Source: Escherichia coli
GTDB taxonomy: Bacteria > Pseudomonadota > Gammaproteobacteria > Enterobacterales > Enterobacteriaceae
Assembly: GCF_016903815.1 (NCBI RefSeq)
Contig: NZ_CP069974.1
DNA: 64,000 nt
Reading direction: 5' to 3' (one strand)
In this document: one piece after another, positions 14,330 through 43,180 of the stretch
Position numbering within the stretch: position 1 is the first letter of the stretch
Layout of the letters: each line of letters starts with the position of its first letter
Notes under the pieces: model-generated
Databases searched by the model: none
Seen by the model: only the letters and a program-made list of their open reading frames with translations
Told to the model about the DNA's origin: nothing
Position numbers and translations under genes: made by a program

Positions 14330-14700
14330 GTATACCTCTTTATTTTCTTATCGCATCAAATTTATTTCACATATAAAAAAAAGACAATTCATCGATGAAT
14401 CGAATCGTGACGCAAGTTACGAAAATTACGATTCATGCAGCAAATCACATCACGAATTGAATCTAGAGTCAATTCGCTTTAACTCGTTGTTTTATTATTA
14501 CTGATTCATCTATGAGTTGTGTTAAATTCATTGGTGAATCATATGCGATTCACCAATGAATCCTTTTTATAATGTAAAATAAATTAAAATACATTATTTA
14601 AAACATAAGTTAATGATTCAAGTAGCAAATCAGCAAAAACTTGTTTTTGCGTAGTGTGTGGTGCTTTTGGTGGTGAGAACCACCAACCTGTTGAGCCTTT
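14330..14700. other. oriT region with predicted nic site near 14660/14661 and TraM-binding inverted repeats
   Basis: GCGTAGTGTGT/GGTGCTTTTGGTGGTGAGAACCACC resembles the F nic region; AT-rich IHF-like tracts; inverted repeats TTCATTGGTGAATC...GATTCACCAATGAATC around 14530-14570. Confidence 0.6.
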
Positions 14701-16784: not shown

Positions 16785-16810
16785 CCTGCTTTCTCCTCTC
16801 TCTGGTTTTC

Positions 16811-17392
16811 AGCCCCCATCATCTGTTGAGTTTCGGGAGCCGCGGTTTTGACGTTTTGCGGGGACCTGCCTTTTGTTCCCTCCGGTATTCACCATCACCT
16901 TTTTGAGAACCTTCGCCGCAAGGGGCATCACTGCCACGGACGGAAACGACTGTCCGGGGGCAGACCGCAAAAGTTTTTGCCTGCTTCTGGGCAAAAAGTT
17001 TTGCGGGATGTGCATTTCACCCCTGGACTGGCGGAGACGGTTGTGGCTGTCTTTGCCCCCGGCGACAGGGGCTTAAACAGGTGAATGGCACCGGACAGAA
17101 CAACGGGCAGGGACCCGCCGCAACGACGTGAAGCGCGGTTTGCGAAACGGCGTTGCCCCTTACATCCCGGCGGTCTTTTGCCGGGATGCCAGGAGCGCAG
17201 GCCACGGCGCGACAGAGGCGGCGCGACCGGAACGGTCGCTGCAAGCCAGGGGTTTTCACGCATCGGACCGTAGCGACAGCCCGAAACCGCGCCAGCGGGT
17301 TCGGCGGAGACTGGCAGGTGCGCCAGCAGCTGCCTGTCGGAGTCGGGCCTGACGACCGGATGCCGCCAGGCAGCCGGGAGCCGAAGGTGCGC
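16811..17392. repeat. GC-rich structured repeat copy 1 (candidate Frpo/ssi-type ssDNA promoter), abutting intron copy 1
   Basis: ~0.57-kb sequence repeated at 28596-29177 (near-identical) and 34285-34848 (diverged in the first ~250 nt); sits ~27 nt upstream of the orf95 start on the minus strand; multiple hairpins, e.g. GCGACCG-GAA-CGGTCGC. Confidence 0.45.
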
Positions 17393-19776
17393 GTGCGACA
17401 GGAAGTCGCTTAACGTATTGTTTTACATTGATAAAACCAGCTATCCCATTAGCTGTAGCCTACCGGGACAGGCGTTGCCGGCAACGGCGGGGTCTGAAGC
17501 TCCCGGGACAACGAGAGCCGGGCGTCAGCCCGGGTAATGCCCCGTGAGGGGCTTTACCTTGCTGCAAGCATCATGCGGCAGGAGAGCAAGGCTGGTCAGA
17601 AGGGTTAACACATGTGAACTGTTGATAAACACCGTTATCGGCAACAGGCCAAAGATGCTGACAGGCCTGAACCAAAAGGTACGGGGTCCGGTTGCTACCT
17701 CGCGCACAGGGAGCACATGGGCGCAGAGACCCCCGGTGAAGAGACAGAACCCGCCCTGACCCTCTGTATGTTAAGCGGAACCTGGTAAACCCGTATCGCT
17801 GCCTCACAGGCAGGTGAACCGCAAGGAACACTGTTAGCGGTGCGGGCATAGGAGGACGGAAAAAGCGAATGCCCGGCTGTAATAACCGGGATACGGGGCA
17901 GGTTCCCCGACGCGAAAGCGGGCAGACTTCCGTCTGGTCTTTAATTGCATGAAAAGCTGTAAAGCAGTCAAAAGGATATCAGCGAGATGAATACACACAT
18001 CAGTGTGTCCACGATACCCCACCCGACAGGCTGGCACACCATAAACTGGAAAGCATGCCATGCCCGGGTGCGAAAGCTACAGTTACGGATTGCAAAGGCA
18101 ACCCGACAGCAACAATGGCGGCAGGTCAGAGAACTACAGCGCATCCTCACCCGCTCATTCTCCGGCAAAGCCGTGGCTGTCAGGCGTGTAACTGAAAATA
18201 CCGGTAAAAGGACACCCGGTATTGACGGAAAAATATGGCACACACCGAAGGAGAAATGGGAAGGAATATGCAGCCTGAATCTGTGTGGTTACAGGCCACA
18301 GCCACTACGGCGAATACATATCCCAAAATCAAACGGCAAAACGCGACCGCTGGGCATACCCACAATGAGGGACCGGGCCATGCAGGCACTGTGGCTGCTG
18401 GCTCTGGAACCCGTATCCGAGACCACTGCTGACCATAACAGCTATGGTTTCAGACCAATGCGCAGCACGCATGACGCCATTGAGTCCATTTTTCTGCGGA
18501 TGAGCCAGAAAGTATCGCCCAAATGGATACTGGAGGGCGATATTAAAGGGTGCTTCGATAACATCAGCCATGACTGGCTGCTTTCCCATATTCCGATGGA
18601 CAGGAGACTGCTTAAAAAATGGTTGAAAGCAGGTTACATGGAAAGAGGCGTGTTTAACCATACGAACAGCGGGACACCGCAGGGAGGCATCATATCCCCT
18701 GTTCTCGCCAACATGGCTCTGGACGGACTGGAGAAGGAACTGATGCAAACGTTCAGGAAAAGTGGTTATCACAGTGCAAAGCACCAGGTGAATTATGTGA
18801 GATATGCTGATGATTTCATCTGTTCAGGCAGCTCCCGTGAATTGCTGGAAAATGAGGTCAGACCACTGATTGCAGCTTTCATGCGCGAACGAGGGCTGGA
18901 ACTGTCGGAAGAAAAAACAGCGATCACACATATAGATAAAGGCTTCGACTTTTTAGGGCAGAACGTCAGGAAGTACAACGGTAAAATGCTGATTAAACCG
19001 TCGAAGAAAAACCTGAAGAACTTCCTCTGTAAAGTCAGAGAAATAATTAAACGCAATCCGACGCTCCCGGCATGGAAACTGATAGGCCAGCTAAACCCGG
19101 TGATCCGGGGATGGGCTACCTATCACCGACACGTCGTGGCGAAAGAAACATTTAATTATGTCGACACCCAAATCTGGCGAGCTATATGGCGATGGTGTGT
19201 AAGACGGCATCCCCGGAAAGGATTGCGGTGGATCGCCGGACGATACTTCTCCTTTGAAGGCAGGCGCTGGATCTTTAAAGCCATAACCCCGGAAGGGAAA
19301 ATTCTGACACTCTTCCGGGCAATGGAAACACCGATAAAGCGCCATATAAAAATCAAAGGCGAAGCAACACCATACACCCCCGGAATGGAAATCTACTTTG
19401 AACGTCGTCTGGATCTAATCTGGAAAGGCAAATCAAAGAAGATGAAGACAGTAGTTCAACTCTGGAAGAGGCAGGGGAAACACTGTCCGCAGTGCGGACA
19501 ACTCATAACCAACCAGACCGGATGGAATATACATCACCGGATCAGGAAAGTTATGGGCGGCAGTGACGAACTGACCAATCTCGAGTTGTTACATCCGAAC
19601 TGCCACCGACAGTTACACAGCAGGGAAGCCGGTGCTCACCGAAAGCACTTATAAAGGCTTGAGCGGAGTGCGGGGAAACTCGCACGCTCCGTTCTTAGGG
19701 GGCGGCGGCGCAGCAATGTGCCGCTGCTACCCGACCCGGCAGACAGGACAACACTGCAGTAGTCAGAATCAGAGCA
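17393..19776 (+). mobile_element. group II intron copy 1 (RT-maturase-HNH IEP); 3' boundary approximate
   Basis: Starts GTGCGACAGGAAGTCGC; 555-aa IEP in domain IV; domain V-like hairpin GAGCGGAGTGCGGGGAAACTCGCACGCTCCGTTC at 19661-19694; identity with copies 2 and 3 extends to ~19776, true 3' splice site probably within 19735-19776. Confidence 0.75.
17987..19654 (+). CDS. group II intron-encoded reverse transcriptase/maturase with HNH endonuclease domain
   Basis: RT motifs (GTPQGGIISP, YVRYADDF), maturase region, C-terminal CPQCG...HH...HPNCHRQLH. Confidence 0.9.
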   Translation: MNTHISVSTIPHPTGWHTINWKACHARVRKLQLRIAKATRQQQWRQVRELQRILTRSFSGKAVAVRRVTENTGKRTPGIDGKIWHTPKEKWEGICSLNLCGYRPQPLRRIHIPKSNGKTRPLGIPTMRDRAMQALWLLALEPVSETTADHNSYGFRPMRSTHDAIESIFLRMSQKVSPKWILEGDIKGCFDNISHDWLLSHIPMDRRLLKKWLKAGYMERGVFNHTNSGTPQGGIISPVLANMALDGLEKELMQTFRKSGYHSAKHQVNYVRYADDFICSGSSRELLENEVRPLIAAFMRERGLELSEEKTAITHIDKGFDFLGQNVRKYNGKMLIKPSKKNLKNFLCKVREIIKRNPTLPAWKLIGQLNPVIRGWATYHRHVVAKETFNYVDTQIWRAIWRWCVRRHPRKGLRWIAGRYFSFEGRRWIFKAITPEGKILTLFRAMETPIKRHIKIKGEATPYTPGMEIYFERRLDLIWKGKSKKMKTVVQLWKRQGKHCPQCGQLITNQTGWNIHHRIRKVMGGSDELTNLELLHPNCHRQLHSREAGAHRKHL

Positions 19777-20048
19777 GGAAGAAAAAGAGAATAATCACAG
19801 GGAAGGTGATGTGATTTCTGACAGGCCATAACCAGAGAAGGCGGGGGAAAAGAACGGGCGCCGCAGGCGCGCGTTCATCCCCGTTCCTGAAGGGAAACGA
19901 CCTTCCTGAAGTCAGGTTGTTCATGCCCGTACAACATCAGCAAGGAGAAAGGGGCTACCGGCGAACCAGCAGCCCCTTTATAAAGGCGCTTCAGTAGTCA
20001 GACCAGCATCAGTCCTGAAAAGGCGGGCCTGCGCCCGCCTCCAGGTTG

Positions 20049-25071: not shown

Positions 25072-25868
<797 letters not shown>

Positions 25869-28529
25869 GTAGGGTAGGGTACGTGTGGTCTTTCAAGATA
25901 AATGGCGAATATGTCCTGCTTATCTTGAGTTAGATCACCGTTACCCCCCCTCCGAACCGTACGTGCACCTTTCAATGCATACGGCTCTCCATTGCTAGCT
26001 TATTGGGGATAAACTCATTTAGCAGAATCCCCACTTGAGACAGGTGGTTGCAGGAGTATTCTTCCCTTTTCCTGTCTCAGATCGGGTAGTTTTCCGCTAT
26101 GTAACTTGTCGTGGCAACTTGCGCACAAAATCATCGTTTTCCGGCGGCGTGCGATCATCATTAGTTGCCACAGGCTGGGTTTATATCCGGCCTTACGACC
26201 TTTCTTCAGGTCTTTTAGCTTTCTGACATGATGTACTTCGCAGCGCCCAGTCTTCGCACAATACTCGCAGATCCTTGCCCCTAATCGACGCATGATCTCT
26301 GTTGTGCGGGTTGTGATATGTGCGGTTCTCGGTTCCGTATCGACAATCGTTGTTCGGTTGCGATTGACATGTTTGAGTTTGAAAACCTCAATCTTTCGGG
26401 ATCCATTTTTGGCCTGAACGGTAATAGCCAGATCTCCATTATTTTGCCGTAGCGATTTGGCGACTTTATTCACTGAACTACGTCGTTTATTCGCTAGGGT
26501 CTTAAAAAGGCTTATTTGCCATATGAAATATAATTTTGATAATTTATATTTCATGTCCAGCGCCAGACTGTAGTAGTTCGCCAATCCGCGCATTTCCGCG
26601 TTGAAAGTCAGAACAATTTCAGCTTCACTGAGATTTTGTAGACTTGAACGATGTACAGCCTTCACATTCTCATAACAGCCATATTTCTTTTGGTGACAAA
26701 ATTTAGCGGCTATATTGTCAGGAACGAAGAGCTGCACAATTCCTGTGGTGGATCTCCGGAGAGCGTGCCGCCCTTGCATTTTCTGCTTCAGCAATTTCTT
26801 TGCATCTGCCTGTCTGATTTCATAGCCTAAAAAATTAACTCCTTCTGAGATATGGCGGATCCTGGTCTTTGCTTCATTAACTTCCAATCCCAGTGAAGTA
26901 GTAATAAAGTTTCTGACCTGTCTTGATATATGTTCAGCATCTTTCTTCGAGCCGATGACACCAATTACGAAGTCATCAGCATATCGAACATAGTACATAC
27001 GCCTGAAGTTTGGATCGTTCATGACCTGAGATGGTATAGAACGTTTTTCTTCAAGCAGTCGTTCAATTTCTTTCTTTATGGCTTCTTTTTCTGATTCAGA
27101 ATCAGTTGCCATACCGTCTACTTTCTTTCGTAGTTTATGAATCTTATGGGCCAGCCTGTTCATATCTGGATTCGCTCTTCGTTTTGTACCGCTTGTATAT
27201 GCAGGAATTAAGTTCTGTTCTACAAAACGGTCCAGTTTGTCGAGGTATATATTTGCCAGTAAGGGAGAAATTATCCCACCTTGTGGCGTGCCAGAATATG
27301 AGCGATGGTATTTCCAATTGTCCACATATCCTGCCTTCAGCCACTGTTCGATTAATTTCAGGAAATTCTTATCCTTAATTTTCTCTGCCAGTGTATTCAG
27401 CAATAGTTTGTGGGGGATATTGTCAAAGAAACCTTTGATATCAACATCCACGATCCATTTAACTCCGTTCCAGACTGGACGAATAGATCTGAGCGCAGTT
27501 TCACACGAACGTTTTGGTCTGAATCCATGAGAGTGTTCAGAGAATACTGGTTCATAAACCCTTTCCAGAATAATTCTTGCTACTTCTTGCGCCAGTTTAT
27601 CGTCTCCACCTGGAATCCCCAGCGGTCTGGTTTTTCCGTCCTTTTTTGGGATCTGAACTCTGCGTACAGGTTTCGCTACGTATTCTCTACTCCGCAATGT
27701 TTTTGCCAGCTTCTCTGCTCTTTCGATAGAGAAGCCATCAATGGTATCTGTTGATACACCTTGAGTCAGTGCACCTGCATTGGCCCGTATATTCACGTAG
27801 GCTTGCAGCCACAGTCCGGGCTCACACGCAATTTTGTATAGATTACGTACTGGATACCCTTTTTTTGAAGCATCCTCAATTCCATCTAATCTTTTCTCAA
27901 GTTCATCAGGCAGCATTGGCTAACCCTCCTCTTAGAGATTGATGTATCTAACAACTGTCTCCCTTCCCCGCAGCACTGTGAGGCTTTCATCTCCCTTCCG
28001 GTTGATTTATACCTTTGCTGCTTCCGTATAATGCGGACTGCCGTAGCCCATTACAGGCCGACCTTGAGTACTATGGAGACTCCGCTACCATGCTGGGTAT
28101 AAATCCAGTTTAGGTAGTCCCGTAGTTTCACGGTGTGGAGATGCGATGTACTTAGGATGTCTTTCGATCGTTTAACTATTTCATCAATAGCTGGCCCGTT
28201 AGAGTGGTCACAATCAACGTAGGGCGGATTTCTTGTGCTATTACGGGAATAACGCTTCAATCGTTCTGCGTTATTGGTTTCCTGTTTCCCACATAGATCT
28301 CGACTTCAACAAACCCAGTTTATCCATATACATCTTGCATTGAGTGGTGATACTTATAACGATTTCCGTATTCACCACCCTTTTCTGTGGATGCTATGTT
28401 CACCTCTCCTTTTCAGGATCTCCGAGCCTGTTACCAAGCGAGGCTAACCACAGTATGCAATGGCTATACCACTAAGCCATGTTGCTTTTCATGCAACACT
28501 CCATAAAACACCGCGCTTCAACGGCGCAC
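25869..28529 (-). mobile_element. group II intron (LtrA-like IEP, IIA-like) inserted in ssb in sense orientation
   Basis: Minus-strand 5' end GTGCGCCGTTGAAGCGCGG directly after ssb codon 13; IEP 26015-27916; canonical domain V GAGCCGTATGCATTGAAAGGTGCACGTACGGTTC at 25954-25987 (minus); 3' end ...CCTAC followed by ssb exon 2. Confidence 0.85.
26015..27916 (-). CDS. group II intron reverse transcriptase/maturase (LtrA-like) with C-terminal HNH-like domain
   Basis: YSGTPQGGIISPLLANIYL, YVRYADDFVIGV, maturase region, C-terminal CEYC...HH...CASCHDKLH; closely resembles Ll.LtrB LtrA by recall. Confidence 0.9.
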   Translation of the reverse strand: MLPDELEKRLDGIEDASKKGYPVRNLYKIACEPGLWLQAYVNIRANAGALTQGVSTDTIDGFSIERAEKLAKTLRSREYVAKPVRRVQIPKKDGKTRPLGIPGGDDKLAQEVARIILERVYEPVFSEHSHGFRPKRSCETALRSIRPVWNGVKWIVDVDIKGFFDNIPHKLLLNTLAEKIKDKNFLKLIEQWLKAGYVDNWKYHRSYSGTPQGGIISPLLANIYLDKLDRFVEQNLIPAYTSGTKRRANPDMNRLAHKIHKLRKKVDGMATDSESEKEAIKKEIERLLEEKRSIPSQVMNDPNFRRMYYVRYADDFVIGVIGSKKDAEHISRQVRNFITTSLGLEVNEAKTRIRHISEGVNFLGYEIRQADAKKLLKQKMQGRHALRRSTTGIVQLFVPDNIAAKFCHQKKYGCYENVKAVHRSSLQNLSEAEIVLTFNAEMRGLANYYSLALDMKYKLSKLYFIWQISLFKTLANKRRSSVNKVAKSLRQNNGDLAITVQAKNGSRKIEVFKLKHVNRNRTTIVDTEPRTAHITTRTTEIMRRLGARICEYCAKTGRCEVHHVRKLKDLKKGRKAGYKPSLWQLMMIARRRKTMILCASCHDKLHSGKLPDLRQEKGRILLQPPVSSGDSAK

Positions 28530-28568
28530 TCCTACGAGAATGACCTTGTTAATGCCACGAACTGCCAT
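28530..28568 (-). CDS. ssb: plasmid SSB, exon 1 (codons 1-13, MAVRGINKVILVG)
   Basis: RBS AGGAGG then ATG at 28568; 13 codons matching the SSB N-terminus, followed immediately by intron 5' GTGCG. Confidence 0.8.
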
Positions 28569-28595
28569 GATGTGCCTCCTTCTGTTGATGTTTTC

Positions 28596-29177
28596 AGCCC
28601 CCATCATCTTTTGAGTTTCGGGAGCCGCGGTTTTGACGTTTTGCGGGGACCTGCCTTTTGTTCCCTCCGGTATTCACCATCACCTTTTTGAGAACCTTCG
28701 CCGCATGGGGCATCACTGCCACGGACGGAAACGACTGTCCGGGGGCAGACCGCAAAAGTTTTTGCCTGCTTCTGGGCAAAAAGTTTTGCGGGATGTGCAT
28801 TTCACCCCTGGACTGGCGGAGACGGTTGTGGCTGTCTTTGCCCCCGGCGACAGGGGCTTAAACAGGTGAATGGCACCGGACAGAACAACGGGCAGGGACC
28901 CGCCGCAACGACGTGAAGCGCGGTTTGCGAAACGGCGTTGCCCCTTACATCCCGGCGGTCTTTTGCCGGGATGCCAGGAGCGCAGGCCACGGCGCGACAG
29001 AGGCGGCGCGACCGGAACGGTCGCTGCAAGCCAGGGGTTTTCACGCATCGGACCGTAGCGACAGCCCGAAACCGCGCCAGCGGGTTCGGCGGAGACTGGC
29101 AGGTGCGCCAGCAGCTGCCTGTCGGAGTCGGGCCTGACGACCGGATGCCGCCAGGCAGCCGGGAGCCGAAGGTGCGC
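28596..29177. repeat. GC-rich structured repeat copy 2 (candidate Frpo/ssi-type ssDNA promoter) immediately upstream of ssb
   Basis: Near-identical to 16811-17392; begins ~28 nt upstream of the ssb start codon on the minus strand. Confidence 0.45.
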
Positions 29178-31561
29178 GTGCGACAGGAAGTCGCTTAACG
29201 TATTGTTTTACATTGATAAAACCAGCTATCCCATTAGCTGTAGCCTACCGGGACAGGCGTTGCCGGCAACGGCGGGGTCTGAAGCTCCCGGGACAACGAG
29301 AGCCGGGCGTCAGCCCGGGTAATGCCCCGTGAGGGGCTTTACCTTGCTGCAAGCATCATGCGGCAGGAGAGCAAGGCTGGTCAGAAGGGTTAACACATGT
29401 GAACTGTTGATAAACACCGTTATCGGCAACAGGCCAAAGATGCTGACAGGCCTGAACCAAAAGGTACGGGGTCCGGTTGCTACCTCGCGCACAGGGAGCA
29501 CATGGGCGCAGAGACCCCCGGTGAAGAGACAGAACCCGCCCTGACCCTCTGTATGTTAAGCGGAACCTGGTAAACCCGTATCGCTGCCTCACAGGCAGGT
29601 GAACCGCAAGGAACACTGTTAGCGGTGCGGGCATAGGAGGACGGAAAAAGCGAATGCCCGGCTGTAATAACCGGGATACGGGGCAGGTTCCCCGACGCGA
29701 AAGCGGGCAGACTTCCGTCTGGTCTTTAATTGCATGAAAAGCTGTAAAGCAGTCAAAAGGATATCAGCGAGATGAATACACACATCAGTGTGTCCACGAT
29801 ACCCCACCCGACAGGCTGGCACACCATAAACTGGAAAGCATGCCATGCCCGGGTGCGAAAGCTACAGTTACGGATTGCAAAGGCAACCCGACAGCAACAA
29901 TGGCGGCAGGTCAGAGAACTACAGCGCATCCTCACCCGCTCATTCTCCGGCAAAGCCGTGGCTGTCAGGCGTGTAACTGAAAATACCGGTAAAAGGACAC
30001 CCGGTATTGACGGAAAAATATGGCACACACCGAAGGAGAAATGGGAAGGAATATGCAGCCTGAATCTGTGTGGTTACAGGCCACAGCCACTACGGCGAAT
30101 ACATATCCCAAAATCAAACGGCAAAACGCGACCGCTGGGCATACCCACAATGAGGGACCGGGCCATGCAGGCACTGTGGCTGCTGGCTCTGGAACCCGTA
30201 TCCGAGACCACTGCTGACCATAACAGCTATGGTTTCAGACCAATGCGCAGCACGCATGACGCCATTGAGTCCATTTTTCTGCGGATGAGCCAGAAAGTAT
30301 CGCCCAAATGGATACTGGAGGGCGATATTAAAGGGTGCTTCGATAACATCAGCCATGACTGGCTGCTTTCCCATATTCCGATGGACAGGAGACTGCTTAA
30401 AAAATGGTTGAAAGCAGGTTACATGGAAAGAGGCGTGTTTAACCATACGAACAGCGGGACACCGCAGGGAGGCATCATATCCCCTGTTCTCGCCAACATG
30501 GCTCTGGACGGACTGGAGAAGGAACTGATGCAAACGTTCAGGAAAAGTGGTTATCACAGTGCAAAGCACCAGGTGAATTATGTGAGATATGCTGATGATT
30601 TCATCTGTTCAGGCAGCTCCCGTGAATTGCTGGAAAATGAGGTCAGACCACTGATTGCAGCTTTCATGCGCGAACGAGGGCTGGAACTGTCGGAAGAAAA
30701 AACAGCGATCACACATATAGATAAAGGCTTCGACTTTTTAGGGCAGAACGTCAGGAAGTACAACGGTAAAATGCTGATTAAACCGTCGAAGAAAAACCTG
30801 AAGAACTTCCTCTGTAAAGTCAGAGAAATAATTAAACGCAATCCGACGCTCCCGGCATGGAAACTGATAGGCCAGCTAAACCCGGTGATCCGGGGATGGG
30901 CTACCTATCACCGACACGTCGTGGCGAAAGAAACATTTAATTATGTCGACACCCAAATCTGGCGAGCTATATGGCGATGGTGTGTAAGACGGCATCCCCG
31001 GAAAGGATTGCGGTGGATCGCCGGACGATACTTCTCCTTTGAAGGCAGGCGCTGGATCTTTAAAGCCATAACCCCGGAAGGGAAAATTCTGACACTCTTC
31101 CGGGCAATGGAAACACCGATAAAGCGCCATATAAAAATCAAAGGCGAAGCAACACCATACACCCCCGGAATGGAAATCTACTTTGAACGTCGTCTGGATC
31201 TAATCTGGAAAGGCAAATCAAAGAAGATGAAGACAGTAGTTCAACTCTGGAAGAGGCAGGGGAAACACTGTCCGCAGTGCGGACAACTCATAACCAACCA
31301 GACCGGATGGAATATACATCACCGGATCAGGAAAGTTATGGGCGGCAGTGACGAACTGACCAATCTCGAGTTGTTACATCCGAACTGCCACCGACAGTTA
31401 CACAGCAGGGAAGCCGGTGCTCACCGAAAGCACTTATAAAGGCTTGAGCGGAGTGCGGGGAAACTCGCACGCTCCGTTCTTAGGGGGCGGCGGCGCAGCA
31501 ATGTGCCGCTGCTACCCGACCCGGCAGACAGGACAACACTGCAGTAGTCAGAATCAGAGCA
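29178..31561 (+). mobile_element. group II intron copy 2
   Basis: Identical to copy 1 across the IEP and flanking RNA domains; same junction with the upstream repeat. Confidence 0.75.
29772..31439 (+). CDS. group II intron-encoded RT/maturase/HNH (copy 2)
   Basis: 555-aa protein identical to the copy 1 IEP. Confidence 0.9.
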   Translation: MNTHISVSTIPHPTGWHTINWKACHARVRKLQLRIAKATRQQQWRQVRELQRILTRSFSGKAVAVRRVTENTGKRTPGIDGKIWHTPKEKWEGICSLNLCGYRPQPLRRIHIPKSNGKTRPLGIPTMRDRAMQALWLLALEPVSETTADHNSYGFRPMRSTHDAIESIFLRMSQKVSPKWILEGDIKGCFDNISHDWLLSHIPMDRRLLKKWLKAGYMERGVFNHTNSGTPQGGIISPVLANMALDGLEKELMQTFRKSGYHSAKHQVNYVRYADDFICSGSSRELLENEVRPLIAAFMRERGLELSEEKTAITHIDKGFDFLGQNVRKYNGKMLIKPSKKNLKNFLCKVREIIKRNPTLPAWKLIGQLNPVIRGWATYHRHVVAKETFNYVDTQIWRAIWRWCVRRHPRKGLRWIAGRYFSFEGRRWIFKAITPEGKILTLFRAMETPIKRHIKIKGEATPYTPGMEIYFERRLDLIWKGKSKKMKTVVQLWKRQGKHCPQCGQLITNQTGWNIHHRIRKVMGGSDELTNLELLHPNCHRQLHSREAGAHRKHL

Positions 31562-31577
31562 GCAGGAAAAAGAAGAA

Positions 31578-31616
31578 CAGTAGCAGTAGCAGTAGCAGTA
31601 GCAGTAGCAGTAGCAG
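31578..31616. repeat. hexanucleotide simple sequence repeat (CAGTAG)x6
   Basis: cagtagcagtagcagtagcagtagcagtagcagtagcag directly 3' of intron copy 2; not expanded at the equivalent position after copy 3. Confidence 0.9.
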
Positions 31617-31791
31617 GAACAACAACATCAGTAACAGACAAATGACAGGCATGAAGAAACAGAAGCCCCCATCAGAACGTCCGCGTAATGAAAGGGGCGG
31701 CGCGTGAGCGCGGCCCCTTTCAGCGCCACCGGCGCGCGTTTTTTCCCGGCGCGGGCAGACAGGCATTTATCCTCCCGCCGGCCCTGTGTCA

Positions 31792-32355
31792 TCAGGCACG
31801 CAGACGAATAATCATCGTCGGGACATCGGTATAAGCAAACGTGCCGCGCGGCAGCTCCTCGCGGACGTCAGAAAACGGTAACAGCTTCTCCTGCTGGCGT
31901 GGTCCGTTGAGACAGACGGCGACCAGCACGCCACCCGGACGCAACAGGGAAAAGGCCCGCAGGATATGCCGGATATCCTGCCCGTGGCTGAACGGCGGAT
32001 TCATGATAACCCGGCTGTAATACTGCACCGGCAGCCATTCCATGAAGTCGCCACACTGAACCCTGACACCGTTAAAATTTTCCCGCAGATACCGGACCAG
32101 CCCGCTGTTGATTTCCACCGCATCACACATGGCCCCCGGCGCGGTATCCCGAATCGCCCGCAGTATGGCCCCGGTGCCGGCAGAGGGTTCCAGAATGTGA
32201 TCACGGTTGCTGATCTCCGCCAGCATCACCAGGCGATCACAGACCGGGGCAGGAGTCACAAAAAGCTGAGATTCAGCCCGGATTTCAGCAACCGGCGCGG
32301 CGTTATCCAGCCTTGCGCGCATCAGCCGGATACGTTCTCTTAACTGACTGTGCAT
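31792..32355 (-). CDS. small orphan methyltransferase (putative DNA N6-adenine MTase)
   Basis: 187 aa with AdoMet motif EPSAGTGA followed by NPPF motif; no adjacent restriction gene. Confidence 0.6.
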   Translation of the reverse strand: MHSQLRERIRLMRARLDNAAPVAEIRAESQLFVTPAPVCDRLVMLAEISNRDHILEPSAGTGAILRAIRDTAPGAMCDAVEINSGLVRYLRENFNGVRVQCGDFMEWLPVQYYSRVIMNPPFSHGQDIRHILRAFSLLRPGGVLVAVCLNGPRQQEKLLPFSDVREELPRGTFAYTDVPTMIIRLRA

Positions 32356-33815: not shown

Positions 33816-34046
33816 TCAGTTAAAAGCGCGTTTCAGTTCGAGTGTGCGGAGCACCTGCCCGAAGGCCGTGTTTTTCATGGCGGGGATGTGTACACCACGC
33901 CCCCGGTGAAAACTCCGGGCAATGTGTCGCCCGAAGGCTTTCAGCACGGGGTCAATTTCCGGCGCGGGGATGTCTTCGCGTCTGAAACGGGGATGACGGC
34001 GGGGCTTTACAGCCGCTGCGGAAGGTGAAACAATACTTACTGTCAT
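33816..34046 (-). CDS. small hypothetical leading-region protein (76 aa)
   Basis: ORF downstream (minus strand) of repeat copy 3; no motif recognised. Confidence 0.35.
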   Translation of the reverse strand: MTVSIVSPSAAAVKPRRHPRFRREDIPAPEIDPVLKAFGRHIARSFHRGRGVHIPAMKNTAFGQVLRTLELKRAFN

Positions 34047-34284
34047 AATTTAGCCTCTTATGACGTTAATTAATGAAACCGTAAAGACTGTTCGTGCAGT
34101 CTCTGCGGTGTGGATTAAGCAGGTCCCTGACCTGCTTTTTTCATATCTGCGTCTGACGTTCTCCGGTGTTTTCCTCCTTCTGTTCCTGCGTTCTCATTAC
34201 CTGCCAGCCGGATGACTGACAGAACACATAAATGCGTATTGCCGGAGCCTGAAATAAATCCTGATTTTTAAAGAACATCACCCG

Positions 34285-34848
34285 TTGAGTTTCGGGAGCC
34301 GCGGTTTTGACGTTTCGCGGGAACCTGCTGCTGTATACCCTGTGGTATGAACTTCACCCGTTTGAGAACCTTCGCCGCAAGGGGCATCACTGCCACGGCC
34401 TGACGCACCTGTCCTGGGCAGAACGCAAAATTTTTTACCGGGTTTTGGGTAAAAAATTTTGTGGGCTGTTCATTTACCCTGGACAGTCAGTGCGGCAGGT
34501 TGTGGCTGTATCAGCCCCAGGCGACAGGGACTCATACGGGTGTGTGGCACCGGCAGGCAATGAGCAGGGACCCGCCGCAACGACGGAGAGCGCGTGCGCG
34601 AAACGGCGTTGCCCCTTACATCCCGGCGGCCTTTTGCCGGGATGCCGGGAGCGCAGGCCACGGCGCGACAAGGGTGGCGCGACCGGAACGGTCGCTGCAA
34701 GCCCGGGGTTTTCACGCATCGGACCGTAGCGACAGCCCGAAACCGCGCCAGCGGGTTCGGCGGAGACTGGCGGGTGCGCCAGCAGCTGCCTGTCGGAGTC
34801 GGGCCTGACGACCGGATGCCGCCAGGCAGCCGGGAGCCGAAGGTGCGC
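34285..34848. repeat. GC-rich structured repeat copy 3 (diverged 5' part)
   Basis: Homologous to 16825-17392; first ~250 nt heavily substituted, remainder near-identical; abuts intron copy 3. Confidence 0.45.
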
Positions 34849-37233
34849 GTGCGACAGGAAGTCGCTTAACGTATTGTTTTACATTGATAAAACCAGCTAT
34901 CCCATTAGCTGTAGCCTACCGGGACAGGCGTTGCCGGCAACGGCGGGGTCTGAAGCTCCCGGGACAACGAGAGCCGGGCGTCAGCCCGGGTAATGCCCCG
35001 TGAGGGGCTTTACCTTGCTGCAAGCATCATGCGGCAGGAGAGCAAGGCTGGTCAGAAGGGTTAACACATGTGAACTGTTGATAAACACCGTTATCGGCAA
35101 CAGGCCAAAGATGCTGACAGGCCTGAACCAAAAGGTACGGGGTCCGGTTGCTACCTCGCGCACAGGGAGCACATGGGCGCAGAGACCCCCGGTGAAGAGA
35201 CAGAACCCGCCCTGACCCTCTGTATGTTAAGCGGAACCTGGTAAACCCGTATCGCTGCCTCACAGGCAGGTGAACCGCAAGGAACACTGTTAGCGGTGCG
35301 GGCATAGGAGGACGGAAAAAGCGAATGCCCGGCTGTAATAACCGGGATACGGGGCAGGTTCCCCGACGCGAAAGCGGGCAGACTTCCGTCTGGTCTTTAA
35401 TTGCATGAAAAGCTGTAAAGCAGTCAAAAGGATATCAGCGAGATGAATACACACATCAGTGTGTCCACGATACCCCACCCGACAGGCTGGCACACCATAA
35501 ACTGGAAAGCATGCCATGCCCGGGTGCGAAAGCTACAGTTACGGATTGCAAAGGCAACCCGACAGCAACAATGGCGGCAGGTCAGAGAACTACAGCGCAT
35601 CCTCACCCGCTCATTCTCCGGCAAAGCCGTGGCTGTCAGGCGTGTAACTGAAAATACCGGTAAAAGGACACCCGGTATTGACGGAAAAATATGGCACACA
35701 CCGAAGGAGAAATGGGAAGGAATATGCAGCCTGAATCTGTGTGGTTACAGGCCACAGCCACTACGGCGAATACATATCCCAAAATCAAACGGCAAAACGC
35801 GACCGCTGGGCATACCCACAATGAGGGACCGGGCCATGCAGGCACTGTGGCTGCTGGCTCTGGAACCCGTATCCGAGACCACTGCTGACCATAACAGCTA
35901 TGGTTTCAGACCAATGCGCAGCACGCATGACGCCATTGAGTCCATTTTTCTGCGGATGAGCCAGAAAGTATCGCCCAAATGGATACTGGAGGGCGATATT
36001 AAAGGGTGCTTCGATAACATCAGCCATGACTGGCTGCTTTCCCATATTCCGATGGACAGGAGACTGCTTAAAAAATGGTTGAAAGCAGGTTACATGGAAA
36101 GAGGCGTGTTTAACCATACGAACAGCGGGACACCGCAGGAAGGCATCATATCCCCTGTTCTCGCCAACATGGCTCTGGACGGACTGGAGAAGGAACTGAT
36201 GCAAACGTTCAGGAAAAGTGGTTATCACAGTGCAAAGCACCAGGTGAATTATGTGAGATATGCTGATGATTTCATCTGTTCAGGCAGCTCCCGTGAATTG
36301 CTGGAAAATGAGGTCAGACCACTGATTGCAGCTTTCATGCGCGAACGAGGGCTGGAACTGTCGGAAGAAAAAACAGCGATCACACATATAGATAAAGGCT
36401 TCGACTTTTTAGGGCAGAACGTCAGGAAGTACAACGGTAAAATGCTGATTAAACCGTCGAAGAAAAACCTGAAGAACTTCCTCTGTAAAGTCAGAGAAAT
36501 AATTAAACGCAATCCGACGCTCCCGGCATGGAAACTGATAGGCCAGCTAAACCCGGTGATCCGGGGATGGGCTACCTATCACCGACACGTCGTGGCGAAA
36601 GAAACATTTAATTATGTCGACACCCAAATCTGGCGAGCTATATGGCGATGGTGTGTAAGACGGCATCCCCGGAAAGGATTGCGGTGGATCGCCGGACGAT
36701 ACTTCTCCTTTGAAGGCAGGCGCTGGATCTTTAAAGCCATAACCCCGGAAGGGAAAATTCTGACACTCTTCCGGGCAATGGAAACACCGATAAAGCGCCA
36801 TATAAAAATCAAAGGCGAAGCAACACCATACACCCCCGGAATGGAAATCTACTTTGAACGTCGTCTGGATCTAATCTGGAAAGGCAAATCAAAGAAGATG
36901 AAGACAGTAGTTCAACTCTGGAAGAGGCAGGGGAAACACTGTCCGCAGTGCGGACAACTCATAACCAACCAGACCGGATGGAATATACATCACCGGATCA
37001 GGAAAGTTATGGGCGGCAGTGACGAACTGACCAATCTCGAGTTGTTACATCCGAACTGCCACCGACAGTTACACAGCAGGGAAGCCGGTGCTCACCGAAA
37101 GCACTTATAAAGGCTTGAGCGGAGTGCGGGGAAACTCGCACGCTCCGTTCTTAGGGGGCGGCGGCGCAGCAATGTGCCGCTGCTACCCGACCCGGCAGAC
37201 AGAACAACACTGCAGTAGTCAGAATCAGAGCAG
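34849..37233 (+). mobile_element. group II intron copy 3
   Basis: Identical to copies 1 and 2 except a single substitution in the IEP. Confidence 0.75.
35443..37110 (+). CDS. group II intron-encoded RT/maturase/HNH (copy 3, Gly to Glu substitution in RT motif)
   Basis: GTPQEGIISP instead of GTPQGGIISP (gga to gaa); otherwise identical to copies 1 and 2. Confidence 0.9.
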   Translation: MNTHISVSTIPHPTGWHTINWKACHARVRKLQLRIAKATRQQQWRQVRELQRILTRSFSGKAVAVRRVTENTGKRTPGIDGKIWHTPKEKWEGICSLNLCGYRPQPLRRIHIPKSNGKTRPLGIPTMRDRAMQALWLLALEPVSETTADHNSYGFRPMRSTHDAIESIFLRMSQKVSPKWILEGDIKGCFDNISHDWLLSHIPMDRRLLKKWLKAGYMERGVFNHTNSGTPQEGIISPVLANMALDGLEKELMQTFRKSGYHSAKHQVNYVRYADDFICSGSSRELLENEVRPLIAAFMRERGLELSEEKTAITHIDKGFDFLGQNVRKYNGKMLIKPSKKNLKNFLCKVREIIKRNPTLPAWKLIGQLNPVIRGWATYHRHVVAKETFNYVDTQIWRAIWRWCVRRHPRKGLRWIAGRYFSFEGRRWIFKAITPEGKILTLFRAMETPIKRHIKIKGEATPYTPGMEIYFERRLDLIWKGKSKKMKTVVQLWKRQGKHCPQCGQLITNQTGWNIHHRIRKVMGGSDELTNLELLHPNCHRQLHSREAGAHRKHL

Positions 37234-37423
37234 CAGATAAAGGAACAACAACATCAGGAACAGTTCCATAACATAAGAAAGAAACACTCCTGAGTCAGAC
37301 ACATCACAGACGGGAAGGGTAACGGGCGACGCGCCAGCGTGGCCCGCTTCCCTTCCGGCAGGCGTCAGCCTGCCAGGGGTTTTCGCGCGGACTGACAGGC
37401 GGCCTCCACCGCCTGCCCCTGTA

Positions 37424-42785: not shown

Positions 42786-43180
42786 ATAGTCTGATCGACA
42801 ATACAAGTGGGACCGTGGTCCCAGACCGATAATCAGACCGACAACACGAGTGGGATCGTGGTCCCAGACTAATAATCAGACCGACGATACGAGTGGGACC
42901 GTGGTCCCAGACTAATAATCAGACCGACGATACGAGTGGGACCGTGGTCCCAGACTAATAATCAGACCGACGATACGAGTGGGACCATGGTCCCAGACTA
43001 ATAATCAGACCGACGATACGAGTGGGACCATGGTCCCAGACTAATAATCAGACCGACGATACGAGTGGGACCGTGGTCCCAGACTAATAATCAGACCGAC
43101 GATACGAGTGGGACCGTGGTCCCAGTCTGATTATCAGACCGACGATACAAGTGGAACAGTGGGCCCAGAGAGAATATTCA
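42786..43180. repeat. sopC: sopC partition centromere (tandem 43-bp repeats with internal GGGACCGTGGTCCC palindrome)
   Basis: About 8-9 tandem 43-bp units directly downstream of sopB. Confidence 0.9.

Follow-up and report, generated by a model that had tools for sequence, protein, structure and literature searches.

Next to one of three copies of a group II intron in the window (the whole 64,000-nucleotide stretch of an Escherichia coli contig analysed here, NZ_CP069974.1) lies a perfect array of CAGTAG hexamers. The question raised by this locus is whether the array belongs to the intron, to a neighbouring gene or to a regulatory element of the region, or is simply a repeat in spacer DNA. 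We address it by describing the array and its surroundings, by comparing the array length among related plasmids, and by weighing the candidate functions against these data.

The repeat tract and its plasmid setting

The tract at 31578-31616 is a perfect (CAGTAG)6+CAG array of 39 nt, that is, a short unit repeated head to tail; according to TRF, it has period 6, 6.5 copies, 100% matches, no indels, a score of 78, and the consensus CAGTAG. It is embedded in the context gaaGAA(CAGTAG)6CAGgaac, with GAAGAA on the 5' side and GAACAAC on the 3' side. Arithmetic expectation for a perfect 39-nt array of period 6 arising by chance in 64 kb is approximately 64000 x 4^-33, or about 1e-15. No other short-unit repeat in the 64-kb window is perfect, and the only array scoring higher in TRF is sopC-like: it occupies 42796-43169 of the partition region, on the 3' side of sopB, comprises 8.7 copies of a 43-bp unit (94% matches), and looks like the sopC centromere array.

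The window is the leading region of an IncF plasmid. The stretch around the tract is 100% identical to several E. coli IncF plasmids, among them NZ_CP020496.1, for which the RefSeq annotation gives a classical leading region with all genes on the minus strand, in the order repE, sopAB, DNA methylase, antirestriction protein, DUF3560, class I SAM-methyltransferase, ssb, ParB-like gene, psiB, and hok. The oriT nick sequence, followed by the inverted repeat GGTGGTGAGAACCACCAACC, is on the plus strand, which is therefore the one transferred in conjugation and serves as template for the leading genes. The features of the region are as follows.

14646-14668, plus strand: R100-type oriT nick region, TTTGCGTAGTGTGT/GGTGCTTTT, nic at 14659/14660
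16805-17070, 28566-28855, and 34276-34531: Frpo2-like segments, 87-92% identity to the F-plasmid Frpo2 construct (PMC11541004)
28566-28855, minus strand: the Frpo2-like ssDNA promoter segment upstream of ssb, 88% identity to the Frpo2 construct
16805-19791, 28590-31577, and 34276-37245: larger repeats holding the introns (self-BLAST of the window)
17393-19735, 29178-31520, and 34849-37191, plus strand: three copies of one 2343-nt group II intron
29178-31520, plus strand: intron copy 2, 2343 nt (Rfam RF02012, RF00029; empty site of CP054336.1)
31521-31562: conserved core, CCGGCAGACAGGACAACACTGCAGTAGTCAGAATCAGAGCAG, 42 nt (self-BLAST, alignment of the three junctions)
31521-31680: low-complexity spacer, about 160 nt, with many A and few T on the plus strand (AT skew, ssDNA folds)
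31578-31616: (CAGTAG)6+CAG array, read as CAGTAG on the transferred (plus) strand and CTACTG on the gene (minus) strand (TRF, sequence)
31691-31720: GC-rich hairpin, AAAGGGGCGGCGCGTGAGCGCGGCCCCTTT, 3' of the methyltransferase stop codon (fold, terminator scan)
31723-31744, plus strand: small terminator-like hairpin with T6, after the GC-rich hairpin (terminator scan)
31792-32355, minus strand: class I SAM-dependent methyltransferase, 187 aa (ORF list, Pfam MTS and Methyltransf_25, RefSeq annotation)

The Frpo2 reference was the published sequence of the F-plasmid construct (PMC11541004 supplement). The boundaries of intron copy 2 follow from intronless plasmids, which show the uninterrupted site ...GAAGGTGCGC/CCGGCAGACAGG...; its end at 31520 agrees with the end of the Rfam domain V/VI match, and a 2,343-bp intron, equal to it in length, has been described in FII-33 plasmids (PMC8765060). 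The intron encodes a protein of 555 aa (29772-31439) with the Pfam domains RVT_N, RVT_1, GIIM, and HNH, i.e., reverse transcriptase, maturase, and HNH domains, and is convergent with the methyltransferase gene. In each of the three Frpo-associated repeats, the intron is inserted at exactly the same site, some 325 nt away from the Frpo2-like segment; it has the sense of the transferred strand and is antisense with respect to the leading genes. The intron, its occurrence in IncF leading regions, and the Frpo repeats have already been published (PMC8765060, PMC10104558, PMC3817090, PMC9849209, PMC11541004).

The conserved core is common to the three Frpo-associated repeats and forms the 3' side of the intron homing site. 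The three intron 3' flanks have their first 42-58 nt or so in common and then diverge, the CAGTAG repeats being present in the flank of copy 2 only, at +58 to +96 from the intron end. In intronless plasmids, the order in the gene direction is the methyltransferase stop, the GC-rich hairpin, which is terminator-like on both strands, the spacer with the tract (some 160 nt, poor in A on the gene strand), the conserved core with the homing site, a GC-rich stretch of about 250 nt, the Frpo2-like hairpin, and ssb, whose start codon is at 28568. The tract is 175 nt from the end of the methyltransferase gene (minus strand) and 75 nt from the GC-rich hairpin.

Two further features of the region were observed. 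Firstly, ssb (25869-28568, minus strand) is itself split after codon 13: after exon 1 (28568-28530), which encodes MAVRGINKVILVG, comes another group II intron, distinct from the one above and in the sense orientation (5' GTGCGCC, reading down from 28529; domain V match at 25989-25869), exon 2 restarting near 25868, where the RefSeq annotation has only a shortened ssb. Secondly, the antisense RNA AS-pc01 of plasmid pHK01 (Rfam RF02875) matches at 34041-34140 on the plus strand with 98.9 bits, in the gap that separates the third Frpo-like segment from the start of the first downstream gene, and hence is antisense to the leader of that gene.

The spacer is composed of short triplet and hexamer repeats (GAA, CAG, CAGTAG, AAC, ATC), and the AT skew across 31520-31700 amounts to 0.5-0.73. 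In ssDNA folds, the spacer is unpaired, the tract being unpaired in both the MFE and the centroid structures. When folded as ssDNA, the uninterrupted ssb-methyltransferase intergenic region adopts a long Frpo-type hairpin (z = -9.4), and the tract falls within a large unpaired stretch of this fold.

A preliminary description of the locus had noted a perfect six-unit hexamer repeat just 3' of intron copy 2, and had pointed out that the equivalent position after copy 3 lacks such an expansion. Both the repeat (by TRF and from the sequence) and its placement (intron end at 31520, tract from +58) were confirmed, and the remark on copy 3 holds for copy 1 as well. The assignment of the tract to a structured region is not upheld, as the tract occupies the only stretch without structure, with a structured block on either side.

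Copy number among related plasmids

A metagenome scan with the 24-nt centre of the conserved core yielded 120 stretches in three contexts, the same as in the window; a scan of viral contigs with the conserved core gave no matches. The methyltransferase-ssb context was represented by 28 metagenome sites and the window, 29 in total. At these sites, the number of units n = 1, 2, 3, 4, 5, 6, 7 was seen three, five, three, three, five, six, and four times, respectively, which is a near-flat distribution. Eleven plasmid records were fetched, ten of them with n = 2, 4, 6, 6, 7, 7, 8, 9, 9, and 10, and one (NZ_CP067431.1) with the variant array CAGTAG(CTGTAG)7. In the lineage of the latter, the mutated unit has spread through the array, and thus the unit sequence is not conserved. 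Overall, the tract ranges from 1 to 10 units across the 28 metagenome contigs and 11 plasmid records. Among the matches listed for a spread sample of the 1253 matching PLSDB records, a 151-nt query corresponds to spans of 130-172 nt.

Copy number differs even between sites whose surroundings are the same. One haplotype with identical 246-nt flanks, found in six records, has n = 3, 4, 5, 6, 7, and 9; a second flank haplotype has n = 1, 2, 5, and 6; and a third, n = 2, 4, and 7. Similarly, n is 6, 7, 8, and 9 in four plasmids that contain the intron and agree exactly in the right flank. In three plasmids from human blood whose accession numbers are close together (NZ_CP103558, CP103756, CP103571), the tract has the same plasmid coordinate, the spans being 151, 157, and 145 nt and the identities 100%, 96.2%, and 96.0%, respectively, which fits a pure 6-nt gap, one unit up or down. 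Copy number thus changes in unit steps between conserved flanks, as in a VNTR, and since flanks remain identical while n differs, the tract changes much faster than the flanks gain substitutions. The proposal in the preliminary description that the tract is slippage-prone is strongly supported by these data (n from 1 to 10, whole 6-nt steps, differences among records with identical flanks), and the comparison with related plasmids that it had suggested as a check shows that the repeat length is not invariant.

The tract length varies independently of the intron. The latter is absent at 27 out of 29 tract-bearing sites of the metagenome scan and the window, and intron-occupied sites have n = 2, 4, 6, 7, 8, 9, and 10; in the metagenome sample, 12 core-bearing sites are occupied by the intron (seven in the copy-1 context, one in the copy-2 context, and four in the copy-3 context, the three sites of the window included). 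A link between the tract and the intron is ruled out, as most tract-bearing sites are empty and n is unrelated to occupancy, and the association with copy 2 that had first drawn attention to the repeat is a coincidence of position. The span normally recognised by group II introns ends short of +58. The tract, at +58 to +96, would be outside the exon positions normally recognised, and it shows no covariation with occupancy, and the earlier suggestion that it modulates the 3' exon is likewise left unsupported, the tract starting 58 nt beyond the insertion site.

The paralogous spacers vary where they contain repeats. The copy-3 spacer has a small VNTR of its own, (AAC)3 at 37244-37252, with 3-6 units and some AAC/GAC mixtures in metagenome contigs; the copy-2 spacer has (AAC) in one or three copies and (ATC) in one or two; and the copy-1 spacer, with no tandem repeat, has point changes only. 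Thus, the length variation follows the presence of a repeat and not the position within the element, as predicted by slippage.

Probable slippage and the alternative explanations

Taking all this into account, the tract is most likely a neutral, hypermutable VNTR driven by slippage in a non-coding spacer of the IncF leading region, and very probably it has no function. We infer both slippage as the mechanism and the lack of a phenotypic effect of the tract length. The proposed course of events is as follows. The array, which is located between the terminator of the methyltransferase operon, on one side, and the conserved core, the GC-rich block, and the Frpo2-like ssDNA promoter driving ssb and psiB, on the other side, would gain and lose whole 6-nt units via slipped-strand mispairing at replication; the minimal allele CAGTAGCAG, with 1.5 units, may be enough to seed the process. 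When the complement of the F strand entering the recipient is synthesised, the polymerase is reported to stall at the foot of the Frpo2 (ssp2) stem (bioRxiv 10.64898/2026.01.09.698686). In the orientation observed here, the polymerase would cross the tract a few hundred nucleotides before the Frpo2 stall, and we suggest that conjugation, with its additional rounds of single-strand replication and the reported Frpo2/ssp2 polymerase stall, might raise the slippage rate.

Some properties of the spacer as a whole speak against complete neutrality. Almost all of its length variation is in multiples of three, and even with the hexamer array removed, the copy-2 spacer has 20 out of 38 triplets in phase as A-R-N (p ~0.0008 in mononucleotide shuffles); A-R-N triplets on the plus strand correspond to Y-T-N codons on the minus strand. 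Such a 3-nt periodicity is the pattern expected of a coding region or of an (ARN)n RNA motif; however, the patchwork of GAA, CAG, AAC, ATC, and CAGTAG repeats yields it by itself. The plus strand is strongly enriched in A and has only about 10% T in all three spacers (31521-31680, 19736-19845, 37192-37315), although their sequences differ, and the same bias is seen in a Klebsiella lineage with a different core. The recurrence of this bias in the paralogs and in the Klebsiella lineage suggests that some compositional constraint on the whole spacer is possible. It is quite unlikely, though, that the spacer is an element of variable length, namely, a poly-Leu/Phe micropeptide on the gene strand or an (ARN)n+terminator Hfq module in a plus-strand antisense RNA, with the hexamer acting as a length dial. 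Were either of these the case, the dial would diversify the element from one plasmid lineage to another, and its obvious candidate target would be early expression in the leading region, which is speculation.

Distinctly improbable, too, is a role of the tract as a contingency or spacing element, whose length would alter the distance between the terminator and Frpo2 or the folding of this segment, and thereby read-through, ssDNA folding, SSB loading or the stall, and early expression of ssb and psiB. The tract is indeed hypervariable, the T-poor, unstructured character of the spacer is common to the paralogs, and on the transferred strand the tract is template-upstream of a promoter hairpin that is active only as ssDNA and is reported to stall complementary-strand synthesis (bioRxiv 10.64898/2026.01.09.698686). 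On the other hand, the distance between the tract and the Frpo2 homology is about 380 nt without the intron and 2.7 kb with it; plasmids typed as conjugative have a 2343-nt insertion between the tract and the promoter; the Frpo2 fragment sufficient for early expression excludes the tract (PMC11541004 supplement); and the copy-1 paralog has neither the repeat nor length variation. Features of known phase-variable loci are likewise missing from this non-coding, promoter-free DNA: the unit of 6 nt is divisible by three, the ORFs over the tract show no coding signal, and there is no promoter whose -35/-10 spacer it could alter.

The tract itself is not a part of the Frpo ssDNA promoter, which is ruled out by homology mapping and folding: the Frpo/ssi homology maps to 28566-28855, 16805-17070, and 34276-34531 and not to the tract, and the tract is unpaired, forming no long ssDNA stem-loop that would rebuild -35 and -10 boxes.

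Very unlikely as well is a hydrophobic Leu/Phe-rich peptide encoded on the minus strand, MPVICLLLMLLFL(LL)6FFFFLLL*, a leader or a type I-toxin-like product in which the repeat, read as (CTG CTA)n, would set the poly-Leu length. In support of it, all three paralogous spacers are runs of Leu/Phe codons in frame with the TGA of the conserved core, indels inside the frame are multiples of three, a divergent copy-3 variant retains both the ATG and the frame (MTLFLLLLLFFSLLL vs MELFLMLLFLYLLL), and gene callers have annotated a 70-aa version of the frame. Signals for translation and transcription are missing, however: no Shine-Dalgarno sequence was found at a workable distance before any candidate ATG, and no promoter-like site. 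The first ATG is lost in several lineages (GGCATG changed to GGTCTG or GATCTG), GCG replaces ATG in a copy-3 variant, and copy 1 has no ATG. Among the few substitutions in the Leu frame are non-conservative ones: NZ_CP067431.1 reads (Leu-Gln)7, and two lineages have Pro in place of Leu. Moreover, nearly all codons are YTN, a regularity at the nucleotide level that differs from the codon mix expected of a membrane helix, and no Pfam or NCBIfam family is matched. The minus strand has about 10% A, and two of its three frames are open across the tract; at this composition, stop-free frames are expected on the gene strand from composition alone. For a type I toxin, neither a conserved start codon with a ribosome-binding site nor an overlapping antisense RNA was found, the latter by the promoter scan and Rfam.

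Highly improbable is the reading of the plus-strand RNA as the 3' module of an Hfq-binding class II-like sRNA or antisense RNA, or of the intron 3' exon, with (A-R-N)n followed by a hairpin and a U-run and with n tuning the affinity for Hfq. Several consecutive A-R-N triplets, as on targets of the Hfq distal face, are present on the plus strand: in-phase triplets account for 32 out of 50 in the copy-2 spacer (the tract included) and 36 out of 52 in the Klebsiella lineage, values reached by none of 5000 mononucleotide shuffles. They are followed by the plus-strand terminator-like hairpin with T6 at 31723-31744. AS-pc01 (RF02875), on the plus strand, maps beside the third Frpo repeat, and hence plus-strand transcription does occur in the region in related plasmids. 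Still, nothing points to a conserved motif in an expressed RNA: the empty intergenic region contains no plus-strand promoter-like site along its whole length, the periodicity falls short of significance for the spacers of copies 1 and 3 (p ~0.2), the CTGTAG variant breaks half of the triplets, the T-run is interrupted (GTCTTTT) in other lineages, no Rfam family is matched, and the patchwork of triplet and hexamer repeats gives the periodicity by itself.

More generally, no sigma-70-like promoter was found on either strand of the intergenic region, intron-bearing or empty; Rfam gave no match over the tract at the gathering threshold, and at E<=1 only a weak chance match at the empty site. Terminator-like sites of the region are confined to the hairpins at 31691-31744, none of which overlaps the tract. 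A role of the tract as part of the methyltransferase terminator is thereby ruled out, the tract being unpaired and 75 nt away from the hairpin, and the modulation of this terminator envisaged in the preliminary description finds no support. Three motifs were considered and dropped from the sequence alone: CTG sites of the DnaG primase (the transferred strand has CAG, not CTG), YC dimers of the rut type (none in (CUACUG)n), and Chi within the repeat.

In many records, two "hypothetical proteins" are annotated over the tract, both on the minus strand, overlapping, and in different frames, where the repeat is read as (Leu-Leu)n and (Ala-Thr)n, respectively; e.g., the overlapping pair is found at 2365-2622 and 2535-2747 in one public record and at 1065-1340 and 1235-1465 in another. 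Neither of the two ORFs matches a Pfam or NCBIfam family, and they are probably gene-caller artefacts of the A-poor strand. It is extremely improbable that the tract is a genuine part of the second of them, an annotated protein of 77-85 aa with a TTG start and (Ala-Thr)n, said to be interrupted by the intron. This ORF is annotated in many GenBank/RefSeq records, the intron has been described as interrupting a 77-aa ORF (PMC8765060), and the CTGTAG variant leaves the amino acid of this frame unchanged (ACT to ACA). However, 64 distinct sequences of the portion downstream of the core have indels of 1, 2, 4, 5, 7, and 14 nt, and there is no codon-phase bias, the variable columns numbering 58, 72, and 65 of 108 per phase. 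The copy-3 paralog has no start codon in the frame, the ORF overlaps the second annotated ORF by 88 nt on the same strand in another frame, no family is matched, and the antisense intron disrupts the ORF in conjugative plasmids; transfer has been shown experimentally for two intron-bearing FII-33 plasmids (PMC8765060). The 85-aa (Ala-Thr)n version, running on into the GC-rich block, is ruled out by the frameshifting indels and the lack of codon-phase bias. Two other frames were also rejected: a Ser-rich ORF on the plus strand is open in the window only because it starts inside the intron, the empty site listing no such ORF, and the third minus-strand frame (Cys-Tyr) has a stop just upstream and no start after it.

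Comparison with known systems

As an ordinary slippage-prone spacer repeat, the tract is biologically of little importance. It could nevertheless be of practical use. The differences in n between otherwise identical IncF plasmids make it a possible marker of plasmid transmission, very fast and prone to homoplasy, and the spurious overlapping "hypothetical proteins" could be flagged in annotation pipelines. The location of the tract on the transferred strand near the reported Frpo2 stall could also make it a convenient natural reporter for comparing slippage in conjugative single-strand replication and in vegetative replication.

Several known systems resemble the tract in part. Like the contingency loci of Haemophilus, Neisseria, and Helicobacter, where simple repeats reside in ORFs or promoter spacers, it is a hypermutable repeat generated by slippage; unlike them, it lies in no functional ORF and no -35/-10 spacer, and no gene is switched. 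Since the unit is 6 nt long, no frameshift arises, in contrast to contingency loci.

Similarly to the Frpo/ssi repeats (R1-R3 of IncF and IncI plasmids), the tract is found inside a larger unit present three times with an Frpo-like promoter, and the core borders it; but it is outside the promoter hairpin of about 330 nt, is unpaired, is limited to a single repeat out of three, and does not form part of the functional Frpo2 fragment. With group II intron homing sites it shares the location in the 3' flank ("3' exon") of a mobile intron, yet it starts only at +58, and n is unrelated to occupancy. As for the type I toxins (Ibs, ShoB) and leuL leaders, one minus-strand frame would give a Leu/Phe peptide of 20-40 aa with the rare CTA codon, whereas a ribosome-binding site, a promoter, and a conserved start codon are all missing from this frame, which also tolerates non-conservative changes.

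The closest counterparts are the simple-sequence repeats and VNTRs of the MLVA type, which are likewise perfect head-to-tail intergenic arrays changing by whole units between close relatives with identical flanks, and in which, as in one lineage here, a variant unit can spread through the array; the CAGTAG tract differs from them in being carried by a conjugative plasmid and not by the chromosome. A full-text search revealed no mention of a CAGTAG tandem repeat of plasmids in the literature, nor of its use as a typing locus. The tract fits the VNTR class, and does not fit the classes of contingency loci, Frpo elements, intron target determinants, or type I toxins.
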